Of a stretch of 64,000 nt of DNA, positions 23,986-44,758 are shown in pieces. Where the stretch lies: the IMG/VR virus record IMGVR_UViG_3300009161_000023, positions 64,001 to 128,000 of that record; one strand, given 5' to 3'. Under the pieces are notes generated by a model. The model had not been told where the DNA came from. It saw nothing but the letters and a program-made list of their open reading frames with translations, and made no database searches. How positions within the stretch are numbered: position 1 is the first letter of the stretch; every line of letters begins with the position of its first letter. This DNA comes from a virus. The translations under genes were made by a program, and so were the position numbers.

Positions 23986-26514
23986 TTAAAAATTTTCTTC
24001 TGAATGATCAATATCTTCATGATCTTGCTCAGAAGCATAGTCTTCAATATTCATATCGTATTTTTCTAAATCTTCTTTGCTTGGTTCCGCTAAAAGCGAA
24101 CCAGATTGTTTTGAACTTGTAGGAGGAGTAGTACCGCCTAATTCTCCACCTGTATCAGGACTTGGAGAAGTTTCGCCACTTTCTGGTGGCTGTAATAATG
24201 TATTTGGGCCTTCAGGGGTTGCTCCAATTTCAGGATTTTCCTTAGAATCTGTTCCTTCGGCAGGAATACCTACACCAAGAAGCTGAGGATTTTGAGTAAT
24301 AATTTGCATCTTAGCATCTTCAAGTTTTTGAAGTTTCATTCTTGCTACAATTTCTTCAGTCTCATCAGGAGTATACTTCATCCACTTGTTTAGAATGTCA
24401 TAATCAGAAAGCATAAGAGAACTCTTTAGAGATGTGGCATTTGTAATTCTAGCTGCCATAACATCTGCTCTGCTAAGTTCTCTCCAATCTGATGGAGGAG
24501 TCATTTTTATAGTTAAATCTAAATATGATTCTTTGGGATAACCTTTTAACCTTAAATGTCTATCAGCAATTTCCCATAACCCATCTTCGAAGCAAGATTG
24601 AAATCTTTCAATTAATCTTGCAAATCTAACATCTTGAGCACTTAATGAAATTTTTGTAATATTTACATCTTCAACATTAAAATAATTTTTAGGAAAATTA
24701 AGTGCTGTGAATAATTTATTTCTAAAGTACAAGCAATCATCTACCTCACCTAAGTTTTGAGCACCAGGTAATGTTTCAATTTTAGTATTGCTATTTGGTC
24801 TTATTGGTAGCCAATAATCTTCGTCTTGCGAAGGAGCATGCCATTTTTCATCTACACTATTTGCACCAGATGAGTAACGCATTTGCGTTTTTCTTTTTCT
24901 AAATTGATCTTTCATTCTTTCGATAAATGATTCTGCTTTAAATGGAGGCAAAGTACCAACATCTATGTAAAAAACCCTGCGTTCTGGTGCTCTACTTAGT
25001 CTGTAAACAAGCATTGCATCTTCACATAGTCTTACTTGTTGTGCAGGTCCTCTGGCAGCTTCAACAACTGAAACACCATAAGGATAAAAGCTTTTCCTAT
25101 CTTCTCCAATTCTGATGTGAATTATTTGTTCTGGTGCAAATCTTATTGCTGTAGAATTTATCATTTGCGTATCAGTAGTAGCTACTATTGGAGAAGAAAT
25201 TAAAGATGTGTAATCTGGCCCTTCTTTGCTTTGTTGAAACTCAACTATTTTACCTTTTGTAGTTTCTATTCGATACATAGAATCAACTGGCAACCTTGCA
25301 ATTTTATAAATTCCCTCTGTAGGATTTTCTTGATTAATTACAATTTCCCAAAACAAATCTCCATAAACTAAAAGATTTTTAAAATCTCCCCAAACTGTAC
25401 GATTTAAATTAAGCATGCTTCTGTGATAAAGCAAAAATTTTAATTCTGATTTAATATCTTCATTTTCACAAGAAATTGTAAAAATATTACCATCTGTATC
25501 TCTTTGGCAATTATGAACAATAATTGAATCTGTTGCGAAGTTATGATGGTTTTCAACTGTCATATCATATACTTCCTGTACAGATCCTTTTTCTACAGCC
25601 ATTACAACTCTTCTGTCTTTATAAGTTTTTAAATACTTCATTTCTTTTACAGAAAATCCATTTTTGCTAAGTCTATATTTTGTAGTTCTCCAATCAACTT
25701 TAGTTAAGGTTGCAACATCTTTGCATTTTAATCCAAGGCTTATAAGTTTCGTTGTTTCGTTTATTTTTTCATATTTATTTAAATCTTTTTCAGCTTTAAA
25801 TTCTTCAATAAATTGTCTTTCGTGAATCCATCCCTTTTGGTGGGTGTATATTCTTGGAAATTGATTTATTTTTGATTTTGTTAAATCTTGATTTGCTTTT
25901 AATCTATAAAATGGCATTAATTGATCATGAAATTTTAAGTCGCCAGCTTGTTTCCAAGTTCCATTTTTCATTAAAATACGATGATCAGCAGTACATTCAA
26001 TGTGTTCACCATTATCAAAATATACCTTTACTGTTTCTGCTGTTTTTGTAATTCTTACATCGTAAGCCCAACTTAAGGCATAATCTTCTTTTTCAAAATC
26101 ATAACAATAAACTAAAAATTTCTGATTTTTCTTTATTTCATATAATTCTTTTATAGTTTTTTGACCAAAAGGCGTTGATATTTTTGTATCGCCAGCCAAG
26201 CAAGCTTCATCTGTATAAACATTTATTACAGATTCAATTTCTGGCATAGATCTTAATCTATCATATTCCTTATATCTACTCATTCTATTTGAAATCGTAG
26301 AAAGATCTATAAAATCATTGCTTTCTCTTAGTCTTACCAACCTTTGATCTTGATTTCCATAAAATCCACCGTCTGGTGAAATAGAAGGAACTGAATCTGG
26401 ATTTTGAATACCAGCACCAACAATATCTCTCGTAGAAATCTTTTTAGAGATTGGATCATCTGAGAAAGCGTAAGTAAAAGTCTTGTAAAAATTAGCCCAA
26501 ATTGGTGAAGGCAT
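23986..26514 (-). CDS. gp20: Portal protein, T4 gp20-like, intein-containing
   Basis: PYGVSVVEAA, EDAMLVYRLSRAPERRVFYIDVGTLP, EDYWLP, IETLPGAQNLGE, YFRNKLFTALNFP. Confidence 0.95.
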   Translation of the reverse strand: MPSPIWANFYKTFTYAFSDDPISKKISTRDIVGAGIQNPDSVPSISPDGGFYGNQDQRLVRLRESNDFIDLSTISNRMSRYKEYDRLRSMPEIESVINVYTDEACLAGDTKISTPFGQKTIKELYEIKKNQKFLVYCYDFEKEDYALSWAYDVRITKTAETVKVYFDNGEHIECTADHRILMKNGTWKQAGDLKFHDQLMPFYRLKANQDLTKSKINQFPRIYTHQKGWIHERQFIEEFKAEKDLNKYEKINETTKLISLGLKCKDVATLTKVDWRTTKYRLSKNGFSVKEMKYLKTYKDRRVVMAVEKGSVQEVYDMTVENHHNFATDSIIVHNCQRDTDGNIFTISCENEDIKSELKFLLYHRSMLNLNRTVWGDFKNLLVYGDLFWEIVINQENPTEGIYKIARLPVDSMYRIETTKGKIVEFQQSKEGPDYTSLISSPIVATTDTQMINSTAIRFAPEQIIHIRIGEDRKSFYPYGVSVVEAARGPAQQVRLCEDAMLVYRLSRAPERRVFYIDVGTLPPFKAESFIERMKDQFRKRKTQMRYSSGANSVDEKWHAPSQDEDYWLPIRPNSNTKIETLPGAQNLGEVDDCLYFRNKLFTALNFPKNYFNVEDVNITKISLSAQDVRFARLIERFQSCFEDGLWEIADRHLRLKGYPKESYLDLTIKMTPPSDWRELSRADVMAARITNATSLKSSLMLSDYDILNKWMKYTPDETEEIVARMKLQKLEDAKMQIITQNPQLLGVGIPAEGTDSKENPEIGATPEGPNTLLQPPESGETSPSPDTGGELGGTTPPTSSKQSGSLLAEPSKEDLEKYDMNIEDYASEQDHEDIDHSEENF
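25510..26202 (-). mobile_element. Intein (231 aa) in the portal protein
   Basis: DEA|CLAGDTKISTPFG (block A), IECTADHRIL (block B TxxH), VYDMTVENHHNF (block F), IIVHN|C (block G, Cys+1). Confidence 0.95.
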
Positions 26515-32864: not shown

Positions 32865-34463
32865 ATGTTTGATTTAATAAAGTCTATAATTGATAATATT
32901 TTTGTTTTAGTTGGATTTAAAAAATCAAAAAAAGAAACTTGTCTTTTCAATAACAAACCAACAGTTCAATTGCTTAATGATCCAACAACACCAAGACTAA
33001 AAATTTCTAAAGTTATTATTCCAGCAAATTTTTTAAACTTTACTGTTAAAGGATTTAATTCAACAGGAAATATTTTATTGAGTGAATCTTGGCAAAAAGA
33101 AAATGTTTATGCAAACATTAATGGTGCATTGGCTTACCTTAAACAATATTTTCCTCAGAATGTTAATAAATGGGCAGCAGTAAACAGTTTGACTGTTGAT
33201 ACTAGAGCAGGTAATGATGCAAATGCATATTACGATAGAAGGAATTTAAAGTTTTTTTATTTTAATGCCAATAAAAAAACTATTTATACATGTGATTCTG
33301 CTGATGTTGTAGTACATGAATTAGGCCATGCTATATTAGATTCTATCAGACCAGATTTTTGGAATTTAGCAGCATTTGAAATTGGTGCATTTCATGAATC
33401 TTTTGGTGATTTAACTTCATTATTAACTTGCCTTAGTTATGATCTATGTTTAAATTCTGTTTTAAAAGATACTAATAATGATTTGAGTAAATCAAATTTT
33501 GTAAGTAAACTTGCAGAACAATTTGGTGTTTCATTAAAAATTGGTAATTCATTAAGAAATGCCTTGAATGATTATAATTATGTTGATCCAAAAACATTGC
33601 CTTATGATGGCAATGGATTGATTCAAGAAATTCATAGTTTTTCTCAAGTATGGACAGGAACATTTTATGATTTGCTAGTTGAATTTTTTAATTTGTATGG
33701 TAAAAATTATGCTGCTTTAGTTAAAGCTAGAGATTTATCAGCAGAATTTTTGTATAATGCAATTCAAAACACACCATCAAATCCTAATTTTTTCAAAGCT
33801 TTAGCAACTAATTATATTTCATACGATTTAACAAAATATAATTCTCAATATAATTCTATTTTAATAAAAGTTTTTACAAAAAGAAATTTAATTTCTGCTT
33901 CTTTATCTGATTCTTTGACAAATAATAAATTTAATATTATGAACGAGGGAAACAATATATTATTTAAAGAAGAAAAATTTGTTTCTTTAGATGCTAAAGA
34001 ATTCGATATAAATATTGATGAATTCAATGTTCAAATTGCAGCCGATACTTACAAGCCAAAAAACAATTCGTTTAACATGCTTTCTATTGAAAATAATATA
34101 GATGAATCTTTAGAAGCAGCAAAATTATTTGTTAGATATTTAAAAAACAAAGATAGTATTGGCAATAATAAAAATCAATCTTGGGAAATTGATTCAAAAA
34201 CAAATTTATTGACAAGAAAATTTTCTTGTTATGGTGATTTGGGATTTATTAACAATTGCACAATTGAAGGTCAGCCAGAGTTTGGCAAGTGTTGGAAAGC
34301 AGAAAATAATTCTGGTTGTTGTCCTTTTGGTTGTAAAACAACCACAGAATCATCAATTCCAGAAAAACCTGTATGTAGCATAAGCTATAACAGCTGCAAT
34401 AAAAGTTCTTATATTAGCTGCAACGGAACAGTTAATAGTGTTTGTAATTGTAAAACAAGATAA
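32865..34463 (+). CDS. Zinc metalloprotease, M4/M36 (thermolysin/fungalysin) type, with a Cys-rich C-terminal tail
   Basis: NAYY, DVVVHELGHAILD (HExxH), FHESFGD (third ligand), EIHSFSQVW; AAAGGAG SD. Confidence 0.9.
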   Translation: MFDLIKSIIDNIFVLVGFKKSKKETCLFNNKPTVQLLNDPTTPRLKISKVIIPANFLNFTVKGFNSTGNILLSESWQKENVYANINGALAYLKQYFPQNVNKWAAVNSLTVDTRAGNDANAYYDRRNLKFFYFNANKKTIYTCDSADVVVHELGHAILDSIRPDFWNLAAFEIGAFHESFGDLTSLLTCLSYDLCLNSVLKDTNNDLSKSNFVSKLAEQFGVSLKIGNSLRNALNDYNYVDPKTLPYDGNGLIQEIHSFSQVWTGTFYDLLVEFFNLYGKNYAALVKARDLSAEFLYNAIQNTPSNPNFFKALATNYISYDLTKYNSQYNSILIKVFTKRNLISASLSDSLTNNKFNIMNEGNNILFKEEKFVSLDAKEFDINIDEFNVQIAADTYKPKNNSFNMLSIENNIDESLEAAKLFVRYLKNKDSIGNNKNQSWEIDSKTNLLTRKFSCYGDLGFINNCTIEGQPEFGKCWKAENNSGCCPFGCKTTTESSIPEKPVCSISYNSCNKSSYISCNGTVNSVCNCKTR

Positions 34464-39658: not shown

Positions 39659-39947
39659 TATTAAAAAAATATTTTTAAATAAAATTTGTACCATAATATT
39701 AAAACCAATTAATAGAAACTTTAACGAAGAACAAAACATTAATTATTTTGTTGGATCTGTTATTGATATTAACGAAGAAGGAATCTTAATGGAACACCCA
39801 GAAAATAAATGTAAAAGTTTTTTTTATAAAAATTCTATTATTGGTTTGGCAGAAGAATTAGTTGTTTATAAAAAAGATGAAGTAAAAAATAAGAATTTTA
39901 ATCCTTATGAAAACATAGATGATTTGACGGATGTTATTAAAAAATAA
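39648..39947 (+). CDS. Small hypothetical protein, possibly Sm/SH3-like barrel
   Basis: KICTIIL...FVGSVIDINEEGILME...FFYKNSIIGL; start refined to ATG 39648. Confidence 0.6.
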   Translation: MNSDIKKIFLNKICTIILKPINRNFNEEQNINYFVGSVIDINEEGILMEHPENKCKSFFYKNSIIGLAEELVVYKKDEVKNKNFNPYENIDDLTDVIKK

Positions 39948-39949
39948 TA

Positions 39950-40759
39950 TTAAATATCTGGTATACCAAGACATCCAATTGTTATTCTTGATAGAAAAAT
40001 ATCAAGATCTTTTTTGTTATAACTGTCAATGTTTTCTTCTATGCATCTATAAAGATCATCAACTTTATTCTCTTTGATAGTTAAAATTATTTTTTTATTT
40101 AAAAGTTCTTCAAATTTAGTAATTTGATTTTTAATATCAACTACAAAATCTTTTCTATCAAGATTATTTAACAAGTCTGATATTTTTTCTTTTATTTCTT
40201 TAATTTTTTCAACTAAATATAAATCTGGTTTAGTAGCTTCTTCTGGTTCTTCTGGTTCTTCTGGTTCTTCTGGCTTGCTTGGTTCTGCTAGTTCAGAAGA
40301 AGGTTCTACAGTAACTTTTTTTGCTGCTTCGTATCTTTTTTCGTTTTTTAAAACATTAATAATTACATTTAAAGTATTTTCAATTTCATTTATTTTATCT
40401 GATATTTCTTGAACCATTTTATCTCGACTCAATTCAATTGAATAATAATTAGATTGATTCCAAGTTTTTATAGCATCATAAATTAAATTATATGTTTTTT
40501 CATCAAGACAAAAATCAGGAATGTTGTTGTAAACTGGCTTCTTTTTTCCAAATAATTTTTCTAATACAGTTTTTTTTTCAGAATCAACATCTGGATTCTG
40601 TGTTTTTATTTCAGATTTGCATTTCTCTTTTAAATCATTTAGAAATTTATTATAAGACGGAAAATTGTCATCAACAAAACTTCTTGTTTTGCCAATAAAT
40701 TCTCTTTTTAATTCTTTCAAAGTTGAAACAAGATTATATAACTGTCTTAAGTTTGCCAT
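39950..40759 (-). CDS. Hypothetical helical protein with a PEE repeat
   Basis: 269 aa; 4 x 9-nt ttcttctgg at 40238-40273. Confidence 0.75.
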   Translation of the reverse strand: MANLRQLYNLVSTLKELKREFIGKTRSFVDDNFPSYNKFLNDLKEKCKSEIKTQNPDVDSEKKTVLEKLFGKKKPVYNNIPDFCLDEKTYNLIYDAIKTWNQSNYYSIELSRDKMVQEISDKINEIENTLNVIINVLKNEKRYEAAKKVTVEPSSELAEPSKPEEPEEPEEPEEATKPDLYLVEKIKEIKEKISDLLNNLDRKDFVVDIKNQITKFEELLNKKIILTIKENKVDDLYRCIEENIDSYNKKDLDIFLSRITIGCLGIPDI

Positions 40760-40762
40760 GTA

Positions 40763-41230
40763 CTATATATTATTTTTTTTTAAAAAGCTTCCGATTTTTT
40801 TCAAAGACATTATTTTTGAATCGAAATCATGAAAATCACTATTTGTATACTGTATGTTTAATTCATTGAATTGAGATTCTTCTTCGTTTGAAACAACATC
40901 AAAATAAAAACTTTTTCCTATTTTGCTTATTAATTTAAACTTATGCATTAAAAGATATGCAGCAACTCCTAAATCAGTAACAAAGCAGTCTGAGTTGCTT
41001 TTAATATTAAAATCTTGTAATTTTTTAAGTCCCATTAAACAATGATCAAAGTAATGAAATTCACTTAATAGATAGCTAACAATTAATTCATCAAATTTAA
41101 GTTCATCATTTTCATTAATTTCAAAAAAAAATATTTTTTCTTTTTTACCTAATAAATTAAACTTATTCATTAGCAAATAAGCTGAAATTCCTAAATCTGC
41201 TTGTGATTTAACTATTTTATTATTTATCAT
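40763..41230 (-). CDS. Tandem two-domain protein (DUF5659-like), coupled to the actin gene
   Basis: Two internal repeats DLG(I/V)(S/A)AYLLM.KF.L...K.F.F.....S.FH.FD...M.LKK; ATGA overlap with the actin stop. Confidence 0.7.
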   Translation of the reverse strand: MINNKIVKSQADLGISAYLLMNKFNLLGKKEKIFFFEINENDELKFDELIVSYLLSEFHYFDHCLMGLKKLQDFNIKSNSDCFVTDLGVAAYLLMHKFKLISKIGKSFYFDVVSNEEESQFNELNIQYTNSDFHDFDSKIMSLKKIGSFLKKNNI

Positions 41231-42237
41231 GATAAGGATGCCTCTGCTGCAATATAACAGCCTCTAGTTACACTAAACAAAGGATCAGGTGGCATTATTA
41301 CATTTCCAATTGGAATGCTTAAATCGGCACTTTTAATTGTTTGTTCAAATATTTCTTTAAATCCATCTATACTTGCAGTTCCACCAGCTACAACAAAATC
41401 AATTGGTTCAGCAATTCTTACTGATTTACCAGCATTTGCTAATCCATTCTTAATACCGACTACAGTTTTTTCAATCATCAACTTATATTGAGTTTGTATT
41501 GCTCTTTCAATCAAGTTTGTTGGTTCTTTTATTAGACTAACTTTCATTTTTTCTTTATTTATGAAAGTTGGGCTTTCGCCAGTAGCCTTTGCAGCTTGTT
41601 TATCAATCCAATCTCCTGAATTTACTATTGCAAATTGAAAAATTGGATTTCCATACATTGCAAAACAAACATTAACCATGCCCCCACCGCAACTACAACT
41701 TATACCTGTAAAATTTTTATTTCCTAATTCAGCATAGACTAATGCTAATGCTTCATTTATTGGTCTAGATTCTAATTTTGATCCATTGTTAGATTCATAA
41801 GCATTAAAAATAGCTTGTAATACCTTGCTGTGATAATCAGCATCTGTTTCTAAGTTAATTGCATTTGCTGGCACACAATAATACAAAAGAGAATTTTCTT
41901 GAATATCACCAATTAAACTATGTATCATAATGCTTAAAATTTGAAATGCATCTTTTTCTTTAGGATTCACACATCCATCACACATCGGTCTTTTTAATTC
42001 TAAGCTAGGTAAAGTATAAGCCATGTTTACAGCAGATTCGCCTAATGCATATGCTACCTTTCCTTTTTCAATTAATGGAACGCCTGCATTTTTCATCATG
42101 TTGAAAACGAATCTGTTTTCTAAAGGTAGCTCTAAGAAAGCATTAATTTCTTTTTTGTATGAAAACTCTTCTTTGTTTTTCTTGCTACAAATTAAAGTAT
42201 ATGTGCCAACATCGAATCCAATAATTGATTTTGCCAT
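41227..42237 (-). CDS. Actin-like ATPase, salactin/MreB/ParM superfamily
   Basis: IGFDVGT (phosphate 1), YCVPA, PINEALALVYAEL (connect 1), NFTGISCSCGGGMVNVC (phosphate 2), GDWID.QAA.ATG, VVAGGT (adenosine), PLFSVTRG; AAGGA SD. Confidence 0.88.
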   Translation of the reverse strand: MAKSIIGFDVGTYTLICSKKNKEEFSYKKEINAFLELPLENRFVFNMMKNAGVPLIEKGKVAYALGESAVNMAYTLPSLELKRPMCDGCVNPKEKDAFQILSIMIHSLIGDIQENSLLYYCVPANAINLETDADYHSKVLQAIFNAYESNNGSKLESRPINEALALVYAELGNKNFTGISCSCGGGMVNVCFAMYGNPIFQFAIVNSGDWIDKQAAKATGESPTFINKEKMKVSLIKEPTNLIERAIQTQYKLMIEKTVVGIKNGLANAGKSVRIAEPIDFVVAGGTASIDGFKEIFEQTIKSADLSIPIGNVIMPPDPLFSVTRGCYIAAEASLS

Positions 42238-42246
42238 GACTTCCTT

Positions 42247-42489
42247 TTATTTACCAAAGTTTAAATTGTTTGTCTTTGTGGATTTAAAATCAGGTATCTC
42301 CCACATAGGATTTTCTTCTTTTTCTTTAGTATCATTAGTTAAATTTATAATAGTGTTTTGTGGAGAATTTTGAGAATTAAAATTAGGCATACCAGTAAAA
42401 TTGATATTTACATCTAGTGTTATATGAAGAGAACACTCTCCATCTTTTGTAACTACTTTCACTTTATTGTTGTCTATTTTGTAAACCAT
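42247..42489 (-). CDS. Small protein upstream of the actin gene, possible adaptor
   Basis: ATG 42489, 4 nt after the upstream stop; beta-hairpin head, N/Q/T linker, C-terminal WEIPDF..LNFGK. Confidence 0.65.
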   Translation of the reverse strand: MVYKIDNNKVKVVTKDGECSLHITLDVNINFTGMPNFNSQNSPQNTIINLTNDTKEKEENPMWEIPDFKSTKTNNLNFGK

Positions 42490-42493
42490 AGTA

Positions 42494-43459
42494 TTAAAAA
42501 TATTTATTAATAAGCTCTTCGATTTTTCCAACGAATTCTTCATTAGTTAATTCAGAAACACAAGGTTTATTACTTATTACATTTGTTTTAGTACAAGCAC
42601 CATAATTCCAGCAAGGGCCACAATCCCAATTACCATTTTTCCTATGTCTTTGTAAAACAATTGTATTTTTATAATACTTGCAATATACATATCCATCTAC
42701 ATAGCTAAAAATTGCTAAATTTGGTTTATTTAACCCACCAGAGCAGTGTAAATGTCCTGTATCTACAGTTATTGTTGCTTTTGATAAGTAATGGGCAGCA
42801 ATTACATCATCAAAAGAATTTAAGCATAAAAATGGATATCCTTTTCCTATTAAACTTAAATTAATTTGATTATGTAAAATTATACAATTAATTTTCCTCT
42901 GATATAAATACTTCAATATAAATTCAATTTGACCAACTAATAAATCTTTAGCTGGTTGAGCAGAAAAAGGGCATAATAATACAACAGGAGCTTTATTAAA
43001 TATTATAAATTTTTCAATATAAGAGTTTACTTTGATTATCGATTCTTCTCTTGGAGACAAATACATATTATGATTCTCAGGGTAGACACCACAATGTTCA
43101 GCCCATATGTCACTTCTGTGAGTAACACAATTAACTAAATATTTCCATTCGTGTCTAATGCAAGCATTTTTTAAATCAAATACTTTTATAAAATCATTTT
43201 TATTTATTGATCCTGAATCTGAAATTTCATCTATAAAAGGATGGGATCCTATAGAGTGATAAGCTTTTGGAATTGACCAATTAATATAAAAATGAGGATA
43301 TTTTTTCTTTATATCTTCAAACATCATTCTCATCATTAGAATGTCACCAAACCCACCCATTTCTCTCAAAAATAATATTTTTTTTCTTTTATTATAATAT
43401 TCATCAATTTTATTTATGTAAATATCATTGTTTGGTTTTTTAATTAAACATTTAAGCAT
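42494..43459 (-). CDS. Glycosyltransferase family 9-like (heptosyltransferase, GT-B)
   Basis: FLREMGGFGDILM, LCPFSAQPAK, ITVDTGHLHCSGGLNKPNLAIF. Confidence 0.85.
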   Translation of the reverse strand: MLKCLIKKPNNDIYINKIDEYYNKRKKILFLREMGGFGDILMMRMMFEDIKKKYPHFYINWSIPKAYHSIGSHPFIDEISDSGSINKNDFIKVFDLKNACIRHEWKYLVNCVTHRSDIWAEHCGVYPENHNMYLSPREESIIKVNSYIEKFIIFNKAPVVLLCPFSAQPAKDLLVGQIEFILKYLYQRKINCIILHNQINLSLIGKGYPFLCLNSFDDVIAAHYLSKATITVDTGHLHCSGGLNKPNLAIFSYVDGYVYCKYYKNTIVLQRHRKNGNWDCGPCWNYGACTKTNVISNKPCVSELTNEEFVGKIEELINKYF

Positions 43460-43474
43460 AACTTATTATAATAA

Positions 43475-43504
43475 AAAAAGTCATCTTGTTAAAGATGACT
43501 TTTT
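43475..43504. terminator. Rho-independent terminator
   Basis: aaaaagtcatctt-gtta-aagatgacttttt. Confidence 0.8.
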
Positions 43505-43528
43505 ATTTTTTAAAGTTTTATATGCTTT

Positions 43529-44095
43529 TTAGGTATAGCAAATACTTTTTACGCCAGCAATAATTTGAATAGAAGCAGATCCTGCACCAGCAGCAGAGAA
43601 ACCAAGACTAGTAATTTGCAAATCGCCATGATTAAAAGTTTGGGTAGAAGTTGAACCAATTGTGAACTGTGCAGATGGTAATCCGTTTAGTTCGCAAACA
43701 ACATCATCTTCACCATTGTTTGTTATTTGAATAAATGATGCAAATGAATTATAAAGAGTTAAATAATTAATAGCTTCTACAATAGAAGTTGTAACAGTAG
43801 TGACATTAGTTACTACTGGGAAACTATTTTCACTTGGATCATTACTGTATACAGATCCATCATCGGTTACAGTTTCAACAATAGCATCTTCATAAGATGC
43901 TTGAGGATAAGCAAATTTTTTCCAATAGTTACAATCAGTAAAAGTTTCACCATCCATTAATTCTCTGTAAATCCCATTAGGGCCAGCAACATACATTCCT
44001 CTTTGAACAGAAGGATTTATTTGTGATCCATTAGAAGGATTAATGTCTAATTTTCCTTGATCTATATTATTAAGGGCTACTTTAAATTCACTCAT
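43529..44095 (-). CDS. Putative virion structural protein
   Basis: AAAGGAG SD, own TATATATA motif upstream and terminator downstream; C-terminal beta-sandwich pattern. Confidence 0.7.
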   Translation of the reverse strand: MSEFKVALNNIDQGKLDINPSNGSQINPSVQRGMYVAGPNGIYRELMDGETFTDCNYWKKFAYPQASYEDAIVETVTDDGSVYSNDPSENSFPVVTNVTTVTTSIVEAINYLTLYNSFASFIQITNNGEDDVVCELNGLPSAQFTIGSTSTQTFNHGDLQITSLGFSAAGAGSASIQIIAGVKSICYT

Positions 44096-44152
44096 TTTTT
44101 CTCCTTTAAGATTTATATTGTATTCTTACAATTATCTAATCTATATATAAAG

Positions 44153-44758
44153 CTAAGAGCTAAAAATGATATTTTCTGGGAAGATTTTCTTATAAATATC
44201 TTTACAATAGCTGTCTTCTACTAGAATTGTTTCTAACCCTCTGTATGCTCCTAGATATAATTCTGGGGATTCTAGACCAGCAATGCATCCTAATTCGTTT
44301 ACATTGTAATCCTCATTAACTATTTCATATCCTTTACTTATAATAAACTCTTTTAGATTTTTAAGCTTGTTTGAATTTAAAGTTGTCCTTCTAGTTGATT
44401 CTATTATTAAACATTTTTTTGATAAATTTTTTACTAGAGGCTCTTTCTTTACAACTAAATTAATATTCGTATCAAGAATCAACGATGTCAATGGATGAAC
44501 CTTGAAGTTTTCTTTACAATCATAAATACAACCAAACTTTTTCTTGTTGTTTATTAAGAAATCAAAATCAATAATGTTTTTTTGTTTATTAAAATTTCCA
44601 GATACTGATTTGTTGAATCCATAAAATATTTTCAACTCTGGGAAATATTCTTCTAGTTTTTTTCTAATTAACAAAAGAATTATTGGTATTTCTAAGTTGT
44701 GACTTAGATATGATATGCAGTAATTATTGTAAATCATATTATAATTTTCAATTATCAT
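44153..44758 (-). CDS. Degenerate GT-B (GT9-like) protein
   Basis: CIAGLESPELYLGAYRGLETILV resembles the GT9 FxGxDSG..HLAAA.G.P motif; start uncertain (44788, 44758 or 44737). Confidence 0.45.
   Translation of the reverse strand: MIIENYNMIYNNYCISYLSHNLEIPIILLLIRKKLEEYFPELKIFYGFNKSVSGNFNKQKNIIDFDFLINNKKKFGCIYDCKENFKVHPLTSLILDTNINLVVKKEPLVKNLSKKCLIIESTRRTTLNSNKLKNLKEFIISKGYEIVNEDYNVNELGCIAGLESPELYLGAYRGLETILVEDSYCKDIYKKIFPENIIFSS

Follow-up and report, generated by a model that had tools for sequence, protein, structure and literature searches.

Gene content of the locus

We analysed a 64,000-nucleotide window of viral DNA (positions 64,001 to 128,000 of IMG/VR record IMGVR_UViG_3300009161_000023), the minus strand of which carries three adjacent open reading frames (ORFs) for an actin homolog and two small flanking proteins. 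The window, with a GC content of ~26%, derives from a T4-like myovirus: it encodes a gp23 major capsid protein (299.6 bits), a gp20 portal and a T4-type large terminase, in keeping with an earlier sequence-only reading of this DNA that had called the actin phage-encoded. A DnaG-type primase and a PD-(D/E)XK exonuclease adjoin the three-gene module, which is laid out as follows (window coordinates):

42247..42489, minus strand: small upstream partner, 80 aa (identified by ortholog alignment)
41227..42237, minus strand: actin homolog of the Volactin family, 336 aa (Pfam, AlphaFold (AF2) model and PDB structure matches)
40763..41230, minus strand: downstream partner, 155 aa, a tandem duplication of a DUF5659-like domain (AF2 model and structure match)

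The arrangement of these 80-, 336- and 155-aa ORFs matches what the sequence-only reading described, and the motifs it quoted, the gap and the overlap between the genes are all present. A gap of 9 nt (AAGGAAGTC, Shine-Dalgarno-like) separates the small gene from the ATG of the actin gene, and the start of the 155-aa ORF overlaps the actin stop by 4 nt (ATGA). The longest frame of the small gene encodes 98 aa from position 42543; we prefer the start at 42489, which yields 80 aa, because its orthologs mostly measure 73-82 aa. Since the three-gene arrangement recurs in well over 100 independent viral contigs, it is not a product of chance, and we take the three genes together to be a real, conserved trait of a lineage of huge phages.

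The phage actin is a Volactin family member

By profile search, the 336-aa protein is a full-length member of the Volactin family: it matches the Pfam Volactin model (PF25216) with 203 bits against a cut-off of 35, over profile positions 3-321 of 321. The sequence-only reading had recognised a phage-encoded actin with conserved neighbours, which stands, and had labelled it salactin-like on the strength of sequence strings, which does not. Hidden Markov model (HMM) scores rule out a salactin identity, as the NCBIfam salactin equivalog (NF053533) gives 13.9 bits against a cut-off of 400 and aligns to residues 271-331 only, and the Pfam Salactin model (PF25229) has no match at E≤0.1. The Pfam MreB_Mbl model (PF06723) reaches 21.9 bits, below its gathering cut-off of 27, over 76 residues only, and none of the ParM, StbA, Alp, FtsA, Hsp70 or sugar-kinase Pfam families matches at E≤0.1. 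PHROGs returned no family for any of the three proteins of the module, and a PDB sequence search with the actin gave chance matches only.

The relatives of the phage actin among cellular genomes include genes on haloarchaeal megaplasmids (Haloarcula, Halogeometricum and Natrinema), the products of which are 28-31% identical to it over 97-99% of its length; the Haloarcula protein aligns end to end at 31% identity (E 4e-57). Two of the haloarchaeal proteins score 436 and 447 bits on the Volactin model (447 for Haloarcula), and only the Haloarcula protein of these two registers on the salactin models, with 17.5 and 25.5 bits. Its alignment to the phage actin carries exactly the strings that had been ascribed to salactin, so these strings are those of volactin-family proteins. 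Among 14 control genomes, one lies above the Volactin cut-off and four give a signal, H. volcanii among them.

In a quick maximum-likelihood tree of 105 sequences, with a midpoint root that falls on the very long branch of E. coli MreB, the triad-bearing phage actins form one clade (Shimodaira-Hasegawa-like approximate likelihood ratio test (SH-aLRT) support of 99). This clade is nested, together with four more distant and mostly phage-like contexts, in a larger viral group (SH-aLRT 100), and the haloarchaeal proteins form a separate clade (SH-aLRT 100) elsewhere in the Volactin family. Because the phage clade sits in this viral supergroup apart from the haloarchaeal one, the tree identifies the phage actin as a member of the Volactin family and not as an ortholog of haloarchaeal volactin.

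We made several side observations on the family at large. The haloarchaeal megaplasmid genes of Halogeometricum (L169, pHBOR01) and Haloarcula (L170, pNG700) each follow a co-directional hypothetical gene of ~300 aa; in RefSeq, one of the two is called 'cell division protein FtsA' and the other 'hypothetical protein', from which we conclude that the family is poorly annotated. Many members carry N-terminal extensions (450-900 aa in total). In one metagenomic protein of 699 aa (P0158), a Volactin domain follows a long extension with a sub-threshold ParB-HTH match (19.7 against 22.6 bits), which hints at a link to DNA for some family members. The JGI annotation of some relatives reads 'actin-like ATPase involved in cell morphogenesis', and phage volactin-family genes are thus visible in databases yet appear uncharacterised.

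Fold, nucleotide site and conservation of the actin

The actin ORF contains the strings GFDVGT, RPINEALA, SCSCGGGMVNVC, VVAGGTAS, YAELGNKNFTGISCSCGGGMVNVC and GDWIDKQAAKATG, and its AF2 model has a predicted local distance difference test (pLDDT) score of 90.8. The best PDB matches to this model are MreB (monomer and filament), the MamK filament, the BeeR filament and F-actin, with template modelling (TM) scores of 0.6-0.7 and E values of ~1e-15, at a sequence identity of 15-19% to the MreB and MamK structures. The actin-fold ATPase proposed from sequence is thus upheld, and its nearest solved structures are polymerising members rather than Hsp70, FtsA or sugar kinases, which do not head the match list.

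Residues D9, G11, T12, E162, S182-x-G184-x-G186, D209, D212 and G285-G286 are conserved across the Volactin family, and the nucleotide-site residues are nearly invariant in 91 diverse family representatives. In the 47 phage orthologs, the phosphate-1 Asp/Gly/Thr, the catalytic-region Glu162 and the glycines of the phosphate-2 and adenosine loops are invariant, as are D209 and D212. At phosphate-2, Ser182 takes the place of the Asp found in actin, MreB and ParM. This substitution, and the RefSeq name 'cell division protein FtsA' for a haloarchaeal relative, would suit a non-polymerising ATPase of the chaperone, kinase or FtsA-anchor type with no cytoskeletal role. We consider such a protein highly improbable, given that the top structural matches are all filament formers and that Pfam finds no FtsA, Hsp70 or sugar-kinase match. 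The Ser, moreover, is family-wide (89 of the 91 representatives), and volactin of Haloferax volcanii, from the same family, forms dynamic filaments in vivo (PMC10869688). By analogy, the phage actin probably polymerises in the infected cell.

Relatives of the actin are numerous: the protein search returned >1000 clusters at 90% identity, and an exhaustive search of representatives gave 838 clusters at the 50% level, of which 211 have E≤1e-30. An actin relative is encoded in 126 IMG/VR stretches, of which we kept 80 loci, with identities of 64-93%. In four relatives compared with the window, the actin is 65-71% identical, next to 73-81% for the capsid protein, 49-59% for the large terminase and ~40-44% for the primase. 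The actin thus behaves like a core gene, being more conserved than the large terminase and less so than the capsid protein. In some relatives, a LAGLIDADG-bearing intein is inserted in the phosphate-2 loop exactly after Ser182 (...GVS / intein / CGAGM...). Inteins typically occupy conserved functional sites of important genes. Examples are the region L083:4001-6140 and the proteins P0121, P0126 and P0127, with LAGLIDADG matches in P0121 and P0126.

Two flanking proteins with distinct architectures

In the 80-aa protein, an N-terminal block of beta type is conserved, the acidic linker after it is variable and the C-terminal W-x-IPDF...NFGK peptide is near-invariant (the protein ends in ...MWEIPDFKSTKTNNLNFGK). 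In alignment A1, which comprises 47 orthologs, N30, P66, F68, F78 and G79 are invariant and W63, D67, K75 and K80 are at least 90% conserved. Judged from the alignment, this is the layout of a tethered docking motif, an invariant peptide on a free linker being typical of docking. A complex prediction from the alignments of the actin and the 80-aa protein scored 0.38, with a best control of 0.00; contact agreement between runs was at least 58%, and the pLDDT of the partner was at least 37. In the calibration of the prediction tool, 58 of 80 solved complexes attained this mark, as did 2 of 110 mismatched pairs; only 7 of those 80, but both mismatches, did so at 0.60 or under. The predicted complex lends weak support: it is compatible with peptide docking, not proof of it. 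We noted by eye that the small upstream protein of one distant relative (L164) has an N-terminal hydrophobic, transmembrane-like segment; the window's own 80-aa protein contains no hydrophobic segment.

The sequence-only reading had described the 155-aa gene as a tandem two-domain gene, and its internal duplication can indeed still be made out at the nucleotide level (two 96-nt stretches, 74% identical and 222 nt apart). The AF2 model (pLDDT 93.4) shows two beta-alpha-beta-beta-alpha-alpha repeats. The 155-aa protein has no Pfam, PHROG or NCBIfam match, its single-repeat homologs are without Pfam annotation, and the DUF5659 (PF18903) HMM does not match the whole protein or either half at E≤10; on the single-domain ortholog in a 572-kb relative, this HMM gives 12.9 bits, below the cut-off of 23.6. 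A structure search of the Atlas superposed one repeat (residues 4-72) on the model of a viral DUF5659 cluster, 89% of whose members carry PF18903, with a TM score of 0.74 by match and a root-mean-square deviation of 1.2 Å over 66 residues. A feature search also pointed to a DUF5659 cluster (score 0.80, a lead only). On the evidence of these models, the protein shares the DUF5659 fold; the domain is short, so this is a likeness at the level of the fold only. In PDB and BFVD, Foldseek found nothing at E≤0.001, and the best VIA-align match was a generic alpha/beta fold (Z 4.7), a null result that is no proof of a new fold. Because single-domain versions occur in three relatives (L163, L086 and L070), the sequences suggest that the protein functions as a dimer, with the 155-aa version of the window as a fused pseudo-dimer.

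Linkage of the three genes

To quantify co-occurrence, we ran tblastn on 83 loci fetched through the actin. The 155-aa protein is present in all 83 and the small upstream protein in 72, and the other neighbours are found in 77 (a 188-aa protein), 56 (glycosyltransferase), 40 (primase) and 28 (exonuclease) loci. In the reverse direction, a search with the 155-aa protein retrieved 76 new loci, of which 75 encode the actin just upstream; the lone exception is cut by the contig end. Spacers within the module are mostly <30 nt across the 83 loci. The conservation of the neighbours next to the actin, part of the original proposal, is therefore borne out, and it extends to L163, a distant phage-like relative in which the actin is 42% identical and most surrounding genes differ. 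Both partners are nevertheless present there: the upstream gene encodes 73 aa that share the KDGE-ITINLNLNI block, carry an aromatic-IPD motif at the C-terminus and match the family HMM with an E value of 0.004 (small database), and the downstream gene encodes 73 aa that correspond to a single repeat copy (HMM E 1e-13). Because the clade is broadly syntenic, L163 is more telling than the counts within the clade. Three genes downstream of its actin module, L163 also carries a ribosomal protein S21 gene (L163:6583-6894).

Further away from the clade, the association is less apparent. The small upstream genes of L164 and L166 resemble the window's at the C-terminal ..FG by eye only, and the family HMM finds no match in them; the more distant actins of L165, L168 and L085 have other neighbours, and the Haloarcula and Halogeometricum loci contain neither partner gene. 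The flanking genes could accordingly be inherited neighbours in a syntenic block, with an actin that works alone or with partners encoded elsewhere. We regard this as rather improbable. The whole 8-kb region is syntenic across the clade, the distant actins differ in their neighbours and the binding prediction is weakly supported, all as one would expect of passive inheritance; yet the 155-aa gene is never missing (83/83 loci, against 28-77/83 for other neighbours), both partners stand beside the actin of L163 in otherwise different surroundings, and the terminal peptide of the small protein is nearly invariant next to a linker that is free to vary.

Neighbouring genes and transcription signals

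The module forms part of a string of five co-directional minus-strand genes (39950-43459) with very short spacers. The remaining features of this stretch are:

42494..43459, minus strand: GT9-like glycosyltransferase, 321 aa (weak matches, all below cut-off)
39950..40759, minus strand: 269-aa protein with a PEEPEE linker, in the fourth position of the gene string (homologs in the two closest relatives only)
43475..43504, strand not assigned: terminator-like hairpin with a 13-bp stem and T runs on either side, upstream of the glycosyltransferase

Only 4 nt separate the glycosyltransferase gene from the small gene, which is read in the same direction, and the two possibly belong to one transcription unit. 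Its product has weak Glyco_transf_9 and heptosyltransferase matches, none of which reaches the cut-off in Pfam or NCBIfam; the homologs counted above lie upstream of the module, and the one in L163 is part of a 687-aa protein. On the other side, the 269-aa gene starts 3 nt after the 155-aa gene, and among the 83 loci its product has homologs only in the window's two closest relatives. A single other family occupies this fourth position in 60 of 67 unique sequences and has no detectable homology to the 269-aa protein, which we rejected as a member of it for want of an HMM match. This common family (L005-L083) has a conserved N-terminal domain of ~120 aa with RG.WDR.KN...NPY, followed by a Pro/Glu-rich tail. 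An IPDF/FGK element in the 269-aa protein, at first sight a shared docking motif, occurs in none of the 64 positional counterparts, that of the closest relative included, and we treat it as coincidence. Elsewhere in the window (32865-34463, plus strand), a 532-aa protein matches M36/M4 (fungalysin/thermolysin-type) metallopeptidases, which is unusual for a phage structural and replication region.

The promoter and terminator signals given here are consensus matches only and carry little weight in AT-rich DNA. In 19 of 50 unique loci, the small gene is preceded at a distance of 20-30 nt by the motif AACTATA, which occurs by comparison in 0.8% of random 60-nt windows; no locus has it upstream of the actin. 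In its extended form, AACTATA(T/A)T, it recurs in loci L008-L083; the window lacks it at this position and has 19 copies elsewhere. This sequence may be a lineage-specific promoter, and its position upstream of the small gene but never of the actin fits a small gene that heads the transcription unit in much of the clade. A T4 late promoter was rejected, as TATAAATA is not conserved: of 51 unique loci, just 2 have it upstream of the small gene; the window has AATAAATA (a 7/8 match to the T4 late box) 11 nt before the small-gene ATG, which is unremarkable in DNA of 26% GC. The window's only candidate signals are a sigma-70-like 11/12 match (43492-43465, minus strand) and the 43475-43504 hairpin that it overlaps, upstream of the glycosyltransferase.

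The phage lineage

The genomes of this lineage appear to measure about half a megabase, since its complete relatives span ~530-570 kb: two of the IMG/VR relatives, a 533-kb record and a 572-kb contig with direct terminal repeats, have a completeness rating of 100%. The window's closest contig measures 120 kb and has a rating of 24%. We found no tubulin-family gene in the two complete relatives. Among GenBank phage records, only LR756511 (61.5% identity) and LR745208 (28.7%) encode an actin relative, both of them uncultured huge phages without annotation. Three actin matches in species-representative genomes fall on contigs of metagenome-assembled genomes with the identical phage gene order, and because this order is the phage's, they are probably mis-binned phage DNA. 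Two further observations concern other genes of these phages. The IMG/VR record behind L033 (532,729 bp) is classed as a provirus yet rated 100% complete, and contains one full gp23 gene and six short gp23-like fragments scattered along the record. The window's gp20 portal (842 aa, 23986-26514, minus strand) contains an intein, with Intein_splicing at residues 118-335 and Portal_T4 at residues 327-727.

A proposed phage filament system

The module looks like an undescribed phage filament system. Our preferred interpretation, which we hold to be slightly more probable than not, joins a phage actin filament, a peptide-docking partner and a DUF5659-like dimeric partner in organising the infection; it builds on the observed family membership, fold, motif conservation, conservation at the level of a core gene, co-occurrence and phage context. 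We infer polymerisation, both protein-protein contacts and the cargo. The Volactin-family actin, which retains all nucleotide-binding motifs of its family, most likely binds ATP and assembles into filaments inside infected cells, like the founding member in Haloferax. The 80-aa protein most likely docks onto it through the invariant C-terminal W-x-IPDF...NFGK peptide, in a manner resembling the way in which ParR, WH2-domain and FtsZ tail peptides engage actin-fold proteins, and its N-terminal beta block could link the filament to something else, or the protein could regulate assembly. The 155-aa protein, as a fused pseudo-dimer of a DUF5659-like domain that is single, and presumably dimeric, in some relatives, would be the second obligate partner. 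Together, the three proteins might position DNA, replication sites or capsids. A more specific version, which we put forward tentatively and think rather less probable, is that T4-like phages of ~0.5 Mb build a volactin-family filament with a peptide-bearing adaptor and a DUF5659-like dimer to position DNA or capsids, as an independent actin counterpart of the PhuZ spindle that is kept as a core gene set.

Several observations weigh against a filament system of this kind. The phosphate-2 Ser departs from actin, MreB and ParM, though it holds for the whole Volactin family, and according to the calibration of the prediction tool a complex score at the level obtained is more likely to be wrong than right unless a strong prior backs it. 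Most triad loci come from one phage lineage with a conserved gene order, in which the glycosyltransferase, 188-aa protein, primase and exonuclease are syntenic too, so that much of the co-occurrence could be inherited and not functional. In a subset of loci, insertions of 600-1100 bp separate the actin from the gene on one side or the other, the 155-aa gene among them, and translational coupling is therefore not obligatory. Finally, no features of a DNA-binding adaptor were recognised. Neither partner is basic, both being acidic to neutral (family median isoelectric points of 5.2 for the small and 6.3 for the 155-aa partner), and no ribbon-helix-helix (RHH) or helix-turn-helix (HTH) fold is recognisable in either, the 80-aa protein not being folded alone. 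There is no centromere-like or iteron repeat array in 39900-44200, that is, within 2 kb of the operon, where the repeats are limited to chance-level two-copy matches and the internal gene duplication. With acidic to neutral partners and no iteron-like DNA within 2 kb, there is no support for a ParR-like DNA-binding adaptor role, conceivable as such a role is. The roles of adaptor and DNA/capsid-binding factor that the sequence-only reading gave to the two neighbours are hypothetical.

The same lack of DNA-binding features would suit a phage actin that acts on the host envelope or cell shape, for example by enlarging or stabilising the cell for very large virions, with the partners as regulators or membrane anchors. 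Volactin, the sole characterised member of the family, has an influence on cell shape and forms filaments that touch the membrane at their tips (PMC10869688). Of the solved structures, that of MreB is the nearest; the gene just upstream of the module encodes a conserved GT9-like glycosyltransferase; and in L164 the transmembrane-like segment was noted in the small protein upstream of the actin. We nonetheless judge a takeover of host morphology to be unlikely: the MreB Pfam score of 21.9 stays below the cut-off of 27, no RodZ-, MreC- or MreD-like partner is seen, and the window's own small protein is without a hydrophobic segment. Neither non-polymerising best matches nor unconserved neighbours, which the sequence-only reading had named as signs against its proposal, were found, and we retain the filament system that organises infection as our interpretation.

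In the literature searched, we found no description of volactin-family actins in phages. The word actin is absent from a comparative genomics overview of jumbo phages and from a 2026 review of jumbo-phage biology, and the 'actin' matches in the COBRA paper were all 'actinophage' or 'Actinobacteria'. Most of what is known of phage-encoded cytoskeletons comes from PhuZ, the tubulin of nucleus-forming jumbo phages, from a single prophage actin (AlpC) and from plasmid-like Alp systems. If our interpretation is correct, a widespread actin-based system with core-gene-like conservation would join this list, in uncultured, very large T4-like phages that apparently lack tubulin. The module would also provide a new actin-docking peptide and the first functional context for DUF5659-like proteins, for which we know of no function, and extend a family named from an archaeon into a large viral radiation. 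The small size and apparent solubility of the three proteins put in vitro tests of polymerisation and binding within reach, with no need for phage culture.

Comparison with known systems

MreB and MamK are the nearest solved structures of the window actin (TM 0.66-0.70, with 0.68 for MreB; E ~1e-15), and haloarchaeal relatives have weak MamK and BeeR NCBIfam matches; the low sequence identity of 15-19% and the sub-threshold MreB Pfam score set the phage protein apart from both. The compact operon of an actin-like ATPase and a small partner recalls ParM/ParR/parC. The C-terminal tail of ParR binds ParM, and the conserved C-terminal peptide of the small partner is reminiscent of it. Unlike that system, the window shows no ParM, StbA or Alp Pfam match, no RHH or HTH partner and no centromere-like repeats, and it has two partners, one on each side of the actin.

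Salactin of Halobacterium salinarum is reported to be dynamically unstable and linked to DNA partitioning (PMC10746226). It shares with the phage protein the actin fold, and its role in DNA partitioning is of the kind proposed for the phage module; it belongs to a different family, however, to which only the last 60 residues of the phage actin align. A phage-encoded actin with an adaptor is also found in prophage CGP3 of Corynebacterium glutamicum, where AlpA is the DNA-binding adaptor of AlpC. AlpC is reported to be a phage-encoded actin-like protein needed for efficient viral DNA replication (PMC4446434). The two systems are alike in combining a phage actin with an adaptor; they differ in the actin family, in the window's partners, which have no DNA-binding features, and in the virus, CGP3 being a temperate prophage of an actinobacterium and the window part of a T4-like lineage with very large genomes.

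The PhuZ spindle is likewise a cytoskeletal polymer of very large phages and, by analogy, possibly a functional counterpart. PhuZ has a tubulin fold, whereas the window encodes an actin, and the window's lineage is T4-like (gp23 capsid) rather than one of the chimalliviruses.

The closest comparison is with volactin (VolA, HVO_2015) of Haloferax volcanii, whose role is in a cell-shape transition (PMC10869688). The window actin belongs to the same Pfam family (PF25216) by a full-length match, has Ser at phosphate-2, is ~31% identical to haloarchaeal members and has in common with them the strings PINE..A..Y.EL...FTG...S.G.GM.NVC, GDWID.QAA.ATG and GGT.S..GF. It differs in coming from a bacteriophage-type virus and in falling into a separate, strongly supported viral clade, and the Haloarcula and Halogeometricum loci do without the two dedicated partners that flank the actin in the window.

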